The notes below the pieces were generated by a model that did no database searches, was not told the origin of the DNA, and saw nothing but the letters and a program-made list of their open reading frames with translations. From a virus (lineage: Duplodnaviria > Heunggongvirae > Uroviricota > Caudoviricetes): a stretch of DNA of 44,739 nucleotides. Below are positions 16,485 through 18,003 of this stretch, piece by piece (position 1 is the first letter of the stretch; the number at the start of each line of letters is the position of its first letter). A program made the position numbers and the translations under genes. The stretch lies in IMG/VR virus record IMGVR_UViG_647533158_000005; one strand, given 5' to 3'.

Positions 16485-16726
16485 GCAATATAAATGATGA
16501 GCCGTCTTTCTGAACTGTTTTTACTTCACAGCAAAAAGAGCCCGAGGTGTGTTTATCGTGTTTTCCGAACTGTAACGGCAAACATTGATAGTTCCTGTGC
16601 TGTGTTTTATAACGCTGAATAGGGTGGTGCATTGTTGGTGGGAGTTCTGGTACTTCCTGACAGGGGCTGACGATGCGCCGCCCGACGTTGTTAAAATTAC
16701 GAAAAAATCCTGTTATCTGTTTGAAT

Positions 16727-16750
16727 ACCGCCTTAACTGGCGGTTTTTTT
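16727..16750 (+). terminator. Rho-independent terminator
   Basis: ccgcc-ttaact-ggcgg hairpin followed by TTTTTTTT. Confidence 0.5.
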
Positions 16751-17271
16751 TACAACTTTATACCGGACTGTATATCAGGTGAGCATTCAGTTGCCATGCC
16801 ATATAACAAAATCCGAAAATGCTATGTCTGCATATTGTTAGTTTGCTTATGTTTTTGTATGTTGCTGCACCGCAGGATTCCCCTCCCTGCAACGAAGGTT
16901 GTATGATGAATAATTTTTATTTTTCCCTTTTCCAGTCATCCTCAGATGACTGGCTTCTTTTTGAGCCTGCCGACAATACGTGGGATGCCACTTCAGGGGA
17001 TGAAAGTATTGCGTTGCCGGGGAAGCACTGTCAGCTTTTTTAAGATAACTCCTGTGAGTTATGTGCATAAATGCTACAAACTCCACATTTTATGTGGTTG
17101 GGAGTTGCCGGGCGCACAGTGAGTTTGCTAAGAAAACGTCTGCATGGTGAATCCCCCTGTGCGGTGGGGTGATACCATTAATTTTCTGTGTTGCCGACTG
17201 GTATCACGGACGCTTTGTTCACCGGGAGGCACCCGGCGCCATGTTGATGATAAAAGTAAATGCGCATACCT

Positions 17272-17295
17272 GCCCCTCTCCGGAGGGGCTTTTTT
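17272..17295 (+). terminator. Rho-independent terminator
   Basis: gcccctc-tccg-gaggggc hairpin followed by TTTTTT. Confidence 0.55.
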
Positions 17296-18003
17296 ATGTG
17301 GGCGAACTATAAGGTGAATGAAGCAACTGATATGTATTGATATGTCGTCACTTATGTAATCCATACGGGCATATCACTAGTACACACTCGCTGTTATGGC
17401 ATTTACTTTTTGTTTTTACTGATTTTCCCGGGCACTCTTTGTTGTTGATGATGAGGTGCCAGAAGTTTCTGTTAAACGGGGTTACGTTGTAAAGGGTTAT
17501 TGGAAGTAGTTTTTCGTTCAGAATTACACCTGAATTAACCGGTGTGAACGTACTACCTGGTGGCAGGAATACATCTGACTGATACCAGAGTATCAGCTTT
17601 ATGTTACACCATACCGTTGAAAACGTTATTCCGCTTGATGCGCATACTGCTGTATCAATAACTATCCATTCCATCTTTTTCAACCTTCTTGGTACATATT
17701 GCCTTTGATGAATTCCACAGAAAAGTATAGCTTGGGGTTTTTATAACTCATTGAAAAAGATCGTTATTTCCGTGTTGTTGGCGTGGTTTTTTGGTTTTGT
17801 CTCATTTTAATTCTTATTGTTTCATCTTTTCTGATGCCTGTGGTTCGGAAGAGTGGCTGTAAGTCGACTTTATTGATTGTTTATAAAACCAGTGAACAGA
17901 ATGAAACAATATTTTACATTTTTAGCGTTTTATTCTTTGCGTTTTCATCTACGGATGCACGGAAAAATCATACAGGAATTGTTTTATAGCAAGAGGATGA
18001 ACC

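Follow-up and report, generated by a model that had tools for sequence, protein, structure and literature searches.

StxS (EcOnc15) is an Hfq-binding small RNA (sRNA) from the PR'-tR' late leader of Shiga toxin (Stx) phages, in which RNase E processing gives a 74-nt species, and stx1AB has been described as 'bookended' by StxS and EcOnc42 (Sy et al. 2020, PMC7547250). The moron site 3' of PR' is occupied by sRNA pairs (Tree et al. 2014, PMC4104026). Enteropathogenic (EPEC) and enterohaemorrhagic (EHEC) Escherichia coli contain abundant Hfq-bound sRNAs of the STnc100/PasD family (PMC8550237, PMC4104026), with PasD/STnc100 located upstream of a sialate esterase gene (bioRxiv 10.64898/2026.05.13.724894). 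The anti-adaptors IraM and IraL bind RssB in different ways (PMC4045071). Here we compare with these systems positions 16485-18003 of the IMG/VR record IMGVR_UViG_647533158_000005 (the window, 44,739 nucleotides in all), an stx-negative lambdoid prophage of E. coli; this interval separates two phage tRNA genes from a nanS-p-type esterase gene.

We conclude, with a probability of about 0.7, that the interval is a toxin-free version of the Stx-type lambdoid 'moron' region, packed with regulatory cargo instead of protein genes, and not a gap or a scar. An earlier sequence-only reading had reported a Stx-like order of Q, methylase and tRNAs followed by nanS-p and the lysis genes, and this order was borne out by domain and tRNA matches. 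The same reading had found the interval to be without convincing genes. This does not hold: an iraM-family gene passes its NCBIfam cut-off and Rfam gave a full-length STnc100.

Probable regulatory elements between the tRNA genes and nanS-p

The STnc100/PasD-family gene matched the full Rfam model (1-206/206) with 102.3 bits against a gathering score of 47 (E 2e-22), and with it a covariance search bore out the regulatory RNA that had earlier been considered possible. Its position relative to nanS-p is the same as in Sakai, BP-4795, WGPS2 and EPEC PasD2. In Sakai, STnc100 lies 75 nt 3' of stx2B, with AsxR convergent; in BP-4795 it lies 3' of stx1B, with AgvB convergent. The EPEC homologue PasD starts at the equivalent of 17142. 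With STnc100, PasD1 and PasD2, EcOnc42 and EcOnc13, the window copy shares the full-length model match, the GCAUGGUGAAUCCCCC...CACCGGGAGGCACCCGGC core, the terminator, and the placement just upstream of a sialate esterase gene and 3' of the stx slot. It differs from them in its central part and in the single-stranded region before the terminator, and therefore any seed and target set would differ as well. Its convergent partner also differs, being iraM and not an AsxR/AgvB anti-sRNA; no AsxR/AgvB-type anti-sRNA was found in the window by Rfam at E <= 1. The window carries one STnc100 copy, followed by iraM. In the related stx-negative prophages of CI5 (our locus L003, 5626-6739, in tandem) and of M8/M6 (L001, L017), three or four STnc100-like copies lie between the tRNAs and nanS-p, unannotated in RefSeq.

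The minus strand encodes a homologue of the RssB anti-adaptor IraM. The protein scored 142.6 bits against NCBIfam NF007393 (IraM; cut-off 121), with residues 4-110 aligned to profile positions 1-110 of 114, and it matched crystallised IraM (PDB 8TWD chain A) with E 3.1e-29 over residues 1-75. The 108-aa product is 100% identical to a protein already named anti-adapter protein IraM by NCBI. The gene is convergent with STnc100, and the layout of STnc100 facing iraM, followed by nanS-p, is also present in the Stx2 phages 1717 and WGPS2; in the EPEC prophage PP5, iraM is likewise upstream of nanS-p. Within the IraM/IraL/RssC group, the window protein resembles IraM in passing the IraM cut-off and in being prophage-borne, like K-12 iraM at e14 (PMC4045071). 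It differs in that the allele is rare, the nearest cluster being 83% identical and the 338-member NCBI IraM cluster 59%, and in that the gene has no clear PhoP box: none upstream of iraM was convincing, and a scan of the whole window gave 114 matches vs 87 +/- 10.5 expected. In other E. coli genomes, iraM and the divergent region between it and nanS-p are jointly conserved at ~79%; the region gave no Rfam match at E <= 1.

Upstream of STnc100, two conserved non-coding units were defined by comparison with E. coli prophage loci (L001, L003, L007-L009 and L015-L018 in our numbering). The second of these is a homologue of StxS. An nhmmer profile built solely from 8 stx-negative copies matched BP-4795 (E 2e-12) and both Sakai Sp5 and 933W (E 2.3e-10) exactly at StxS/tR', the next best match in 133 kb having E > 2, and the covariance model R1 gave 42-43 bits at the same sites. 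In 933W the match runs exactly to the terminator annotated ahead of the tRNA genes, and in Sakai to the StxS Term-seq 3' end (PMC7547250), allowing for a 142-nt coordinate shift of the current record. The homology to StxS covers ~150 nt at the profile level up to the tR' terminator, with 60% identity and colinear features, in the order 5' hairpin, CCCUG(U/C)AACGAA seed, U-rich stretch and GCCAG...CUGGC terminator. The element folds with z = -3.75, and its TGTATGATGA core is invariant in all eight aligned copies. The predicted pairing at the rpoS activation site may be comparable with that of StxS. For the window RNA, whose putative duplex contains a 3-nt bulge and a C/A mismatch, the computed value is -23.2 kcal/mol (z -3.7) vs -25.0 for Sakai StxS, and other variants range from -27.2 (CV839) to no pairing (JP538). 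These values were computed on the 39-nt activation site; with the long leader, RNAduplex gave meaningless long-loop duplexes.

Of 5426 complete E. coli genomes, 494 (9%) contain the StxS-like element, without annotation. STnc100 copies come after it in the loci that were inspected, some of them Rac-like prophages whose antiterminator gene is a different one. When species-representative genomes were scanned for an exact pattern of its core, Shigella flexneri alone was returned. In the window, the element is ~3 kb from Q, beyond the methylase and the tRNAs, and not next to a Q-adjacent PR'. In CV839, JP538 and M6, a TATAAT, 28-29 nt, a hairpin-T run, ~120 nt and the StxS-like terminator follow one another over ~245 nt, a series comparable to the 258-nt PR'-tR' transcript of Sakai; ~125 nt that include the TATAAT are absent from the window and from CI5. 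Right after Q, at 13790-13889, the window has what is likely its own PR' (TTGATT-16-TGgTAGATT), with a hairpin (CCCGCC..GCGGG + T7) ~40 nt further on. This hairpin resembles the first 'possible terminator' after pR'/qut of 933W, though the Q proteins belong to different families. Since the window has no TATAAT part and has its own PR'-like promoter right after Q, the StxS-like element is uncoupled from the late promoter.

Two further proposals concerning this element are less certain. The stretch 16835-16863, with a candidate -10 at 16858-16863, may be a sigma-70 promoter for it; the homologous Sakai stretch is transcribed leader, and the short form there arises through RNase E cleavage (PMC7547250). 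A relationship with PasA/PasC was suggested by pairwise scores and not supported by the covariance model: local alignment of 16869-16964 gave z 5.3 vs PasC and z 2.7 vs PasA (a pairwise score only), model R1 had no match to PasA or PasC at E <= 10, and the StxS-like element has the opposite orientation to them relative to the late operon.

As a separate observation, prophages of the CV839, JP538 and M6 types carry a STnc100-like copy that has diverged strongly (27.6 bits, under the threshold) just upstream of their terminator-1 equivalent (L009 3616-3811; L007 ~3310-3480). It has a consensus TATAAT near its 3' end which, by spacing, looks like the PR' that drives the StxS-like leader there. 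If true, an sRNA-like element and the late promoter overlap in these prophages.

The first unit begins directly 3' of the tRNAs. The promoter segment upstream of the tRNA genes aligns with 933W at 86-88%, where the counterpart site is annotated 'pT; putative tRNA promoter', and because of this promoter we read the unit as the trailer of the tRNA operon. Its long hairpin shows compensatory changes in 9 of 32 pairs, and 91.7% of cells are paired vs 35-61% with the partner columns slid; just 3 of 500 shuffles came up to what was observed. The covariance model R2, made for this hairpin, gave 103-142 bits on the + strand vs 14-28 on the - strand, and it matched only loci that also carry the StxS-like element. 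The hairpin had no match to a known family, and Rfam at E <= 10 on 16470-17120 gave chance-level matches only. Terminator 1, which closes the unit, corresponds to the first hairpin-T run after PR' in the relatives and in 933W. Of the two tRNAs, the first is a tRNA(CAU), the ileZ homologue, and the second is the homologue of Stx-phage argN, annotated tRNA-Lys in E. coli CI5. ARAGORN assigned to the argN homologue an anticodon of four bases, 'tttt', which gives the anticodon loop 8 nt; this tRNA may have degenerated or may resemble frameshift suppressors.

The interval could also be thought to encode small proteins on the + strand, for instance the 46-aa open reading frame (ORF) at 16906 or a 74-aa ORF at 16819. 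A Shine-Dalgarno-like GAAGG lies 6 nt before ATGATG at 16903-16908, and the ATGATGA core is invariant. Against this, frameshifts or stop codons interrupt every + strand ORF of at least 40 aa in 16485-17122, including the 46-aa one, in the CI5 orthologue (92% identity), and these ORFs are therefore not genes. Near-identical copies of the 46-aa ORF differ by 1-3-nt indels inside T-runs, the peptide length varies (15, 19 or 46 aa), the Shine-Dalgarno-like sequence is lost in the JP538 type, the ORF passes through an intrinsic terminator, and there were no Pfam or NCBIfam matches. Coding by this strand is thus highly improbable. Both of the ORFs with Shine-Dalgarno sites singled out earlier are thereby accounted for, the 108-aa one as the iraM-family gene and the 46-aa one as an unconserved frame inside the StxS-like RNA. 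The + strand has three strong intrinsic terminators, one at the end of each RNA unit, where two had been counted before, and terminator-like sites are enriched at 15000-19000 (13 vs 4.3 +/- 1.8 expected).

Relation to the stx slot

The absence of any StxA/StxB-like translation, noted from the sequence before, was confirmed by tblastn with the Stx1 and Stx2 subunits, which gave noise only across the whole window; the lowest E, 0.010, belonged to a 10-residue stx1B stretch at 20250-20279, outside the interval. Three Stx2 phages, WGPS2, 1720a-02 and KH16-043, have a methylase-tRNA flank that is 90-91% identical to the window. Their blastn alignments with it break off precisely at 16484, where the argN homologue ends, and pick up again in STnc100 (17097-17306) and nanS-p, with iraM as a further matching segment in WGPS2; all three have argO and stx2AB in the corresponding gap. 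In the window, the StxS-like and STnc100 bookends are 150 nt apart, with nothing in between. From this pattern of homology stopping and resuming, it follows that Stx phages carry stxAB between the two sRNA bookends that are adjacent here, the left-hand limit being either the StxS element or the tRNAs.

In the Stx1 phage BP-4795, a 9-bp direct repeat, ATAAATGTT, flanks stx1AB (our locus L006, ~2474 and ~3941), and the window has a single counterpart of it. A single copy here would point to an insertion in BP-4795 and not to a deletion in the window, although with matches this short it is suggestive only; the 9-mer may be the footprint of a cassette insertion. Taken together, the breakpoints, the bookends, the spread of the StxS-like element and the single-copy 9-mer favour an unoccupied or alternative slot over a scar left by deletion. 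Of the two options left by the sequence-only reading, the alternative cargo slot is in essence correct: the interval lies at precisely the point at which Stx2 phages that share its left flank have argO and stx2AB, and it holds regulatory RNAs and one small protein gene.

The other option, a vacated slot from which an ancestral stxAB was deleted leaving a scar, draws on the flanks that the window has in common with Stx2 phages (~90% on the left, 70-83% on the right) and on the third tRNA, argO, and stx2AB being missing at exactly this point. We consider it very unlikely. There is no stx-derived sequence in any frame, and 16485-17111 consists of ~630 bp unrelated to Stx2-phage sequence, which is common to other stx-negative prophages at 67-93%. 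The succession of StxS-like element and STnc100 recurs in distant stx-negative prophages, among them Rac-like ones with a different antiterminator gene, and the repeat that surrounds stx1AB in BP-4795 is single-copy here. A conserved backbone spacer, proposed as the outcome that would speak against a cargo slot, describes the interval in part: the right two thirds (StxS-like element, STnc100 and iraM) are conserved in many lambdoid prophages, whereas the left edge is a sharp mosaic breakpoint.

The unoccupied or alternative slot also resembles the moron site of EHEC lambdoid prophages with its convergent sRNA pairs (PMC4104026). The position is the same, with small regulators again placed after the late promoter or tRNAs and ahead of the lysis genes; the difference is that the convergent partner in the window is a protein gene, iraM.

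Regulatory cargo or recombination leftovers

We propose a model for this locus in which expression, targets, RssB binding and the effect on RpoS are predicted from sequence. In the lysogen, pT, the likely source of lysogenic transcription into the interval, and possibly internal promoters would yield the tRNAs and the trailer. Read-through or processing would yield a StxS-like RNA of ~95 nt, and a STnc100-type RNA of ~160-190 nt would also be made in the lysogen. Homologues of both sRNAs bind Hfq (PMC4104026, PMC7547250, PMC8550237), and Hfq may mediate the action of both window RNAs on host mRNAs. By sequestering RssB, in the manner of IraM and IraL (PMC4045071), the IraM-like protein would keep sigma-S out of reach of ClpXP. 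Once the prophage is induced, RNA polymerase modified by Q would pass the three + strand terminators into nanS-p and the lysis genes.

Several observations weigh against the regulatory reading. The STnc100 gene scores about half of the Sakai copy (102 vs 208 bits), and no promoter could be identified for it. The pairwise alignment of the StxS-like element with Sakai is weak by itself (z 2.9), and the homology claim therefore rests on the profile searches. Covariation in the element is not significant, as few pairs vary among the Escherichia and Shigella copies to which the sampling was confined. Its seed, kept for the most part, has a U-to-C change and a 3-nt insertion, and the element may therefore be a relic; the GU/AUU site at which RNase E acts in Sakai StxS is not conserved (GCUGCACC here vs AAGUAUUG); and the PR' promoter and qut region kept by relatives have been lost in a ~125-nt deletion. 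These changes, together with the distance from Q/PR', the low identity and the stx-negative host prophage, set the window copy apart from StxS.

Such features are what one would see if the interval were mostly inert mosaic debris, with the trailer, the StxS-like piece and perhaps STnc100 as decaying recombination leftovers that act only as terminators for Q to override, and with iraM as the sole working gene. Besides the deleted promoter part, the altered seed, the lost RNase E site and the weak covariation, this explanation can point to STnc100-like units that vary from 1 to 4 copies among relatives and to JP538-type copies without any rpoS complementarity. Nevertheless, we hold it to be unlikely. 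The hairpins and terminators are intact, the StxS-like element has its fold of z = -3.75 and its invariant core, pairing in the trailer hairpin is kept via compensatory changes, and the STnc100/PasD relatives in EPEC and EHEC are abundant and Hfq-bound (PMC8550237, PMC4104026).

Neighbouring features and meaning for Stx-type prophages

The features of the interval and its surroundings are listed in Table 1. The exact combination is rare, being found in contig GG749133.1 of GCA_000163155.1 (100%) and in one 98%-identical genome; a search for E. coli genomes covering at least 80% of the interval returned none. When the interval was compared with 50,697 phage records, megablast gave no match and blastn aligned short pieces only.

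Table 1. Positions of the genes, RNA elements and signals in and around the interval 16485-18003
Feature	Position	Strand	Details
Q antiterminator	12963-13784		PF03589
65-aa ORF	between Q and methylase		alongside the 237-aa membrane ORF
N6/N4 methylase	15230-16288		
pT tRNA-operon promoter	16292-16320	+	TTGCAG-17-TATTAT; just outside the interval
Two phage tRNA genes	16329-16404, 16407-16484	+	ARAGORN; Rfam tRNA 72.5 and 45.1 bits
Unit 1, read as tRNA-operon trailer	16485-16752	+	conserved, non-coding
Long imperfect RNA hairpin	16609-16694	+	32 pairs; RNAalifold, 6 sequences
Intrinsic terminator 1	16727-16752	+	16727-16744, ACCGCCTTAACTGGCGGT + T8; end of unit 1
StxS homologue (unit 2)	16803-16962	+	matches 3' ~150 nt of Stx-phage PR'-tR' late-leader RNA
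5' hairpin of StxS homologue	16872-16890	+	
rpoS-seed-like sequence	16885-16898	+	CCCUGCAACGAAGG
tR'-type terminator	16932-16953	+	followed by CTTCTTTTT; U-run to 16962
Single 9-mer counterpart	17067-17075		ATAAATGCT; candidate empty insertion site
STnc100/PasD-family sRNA gene	17112-17301	+	Rfam RF02076
Intrinsic terminator 3	17272-17289	+	+ T6; 3' end of STnc100
iraM-family gene, RssB anti-adaptor homologue	17348-17674	-	108 aa from ATG; 111 aa from TTG at 17683
AT-rich divergent intergenic region	17675-18003		upstream (regulatory) region of iraM and 5' region of nanS-p
nanS-p-type esterase	18004-19944		DUF1737+SASA+DUF6645
Holin, lysozyme, spanin	3' of nanS-p		

Further features lie outside the interval. 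Between the Q/PR' region and the methylase, 14028-14741 encodes a 237-aa multi-pass membrane protein (PF27470 TfpB in the precomputed annotation); it is an insertion relative to the CI5 prophage and looks like a separate moron. On the - strand at 19948-19995, directly after the nanS-p stop codon, there is a strong intrinsic terminator, GCCGCCGG...CCGGCGGC + T8. The antisense sRNAs PasA/PasC occupy the equivalent position in EPEC, with no sequence similarity, and the terminator may end an unrelated antisense sRNA. Elsewhere in the prophage, Rfam matched DicF at 4512-4563 (-) and a hok/sok antisense RNA at 11127-11302 (+).

All parts of the interval belong to described families (StxS, STnc100/PasD, IraM/IraL/RssC and the moron-site sRNA pairs), and one of them is already annotated publicly. 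No component is of a new kind, and the value of the finding is therefore incremental. Three aspects seem not to have been described before: the occurrence in stx-negative prophages of a StxS homologue separated from PR', together with its frequency; the conserved trailer hairpin; and the pairing, in the toxin slot, of a potential rpoS-activating sRNA with a RpoS-stabilising anti-adaptor.

A broader hypothesis, which we offer tentatively and consider doubtful, is that the stx slot was ancestrally a host stress-response module. Two independent sigma-S levers would then stand side by side here, a StxS-like sRNA potentially able to open the rpoS leader and an IraM-like anti-adaptor that would block RssB/ClpXP degradation, with a third sRNA of the STnc100 type and the previously undescribed trailer hairpin alongside. 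The stx operons would be late insertions between pre-existing sRNA bookends, and PR'-uncoupled StxS-like RNAs would form a widespread, unannotated sRNA class.

For annotation, our analysis means that the apparent 'gene deserts' of lambdoid late regions are dense in regulatory RNA genes, and that a real iraM was dismissed here as a low-quality ORF. For the evolution of Stx phages, the locus provides a clean toxin-free reference configuration, which helps to define where and how stx cassettes inserted. For the host, it suggests that Stx-phage relatives devoid of the toxin may nevertheless adjust RpoS by means of an sRNA and an anti-adaptor.

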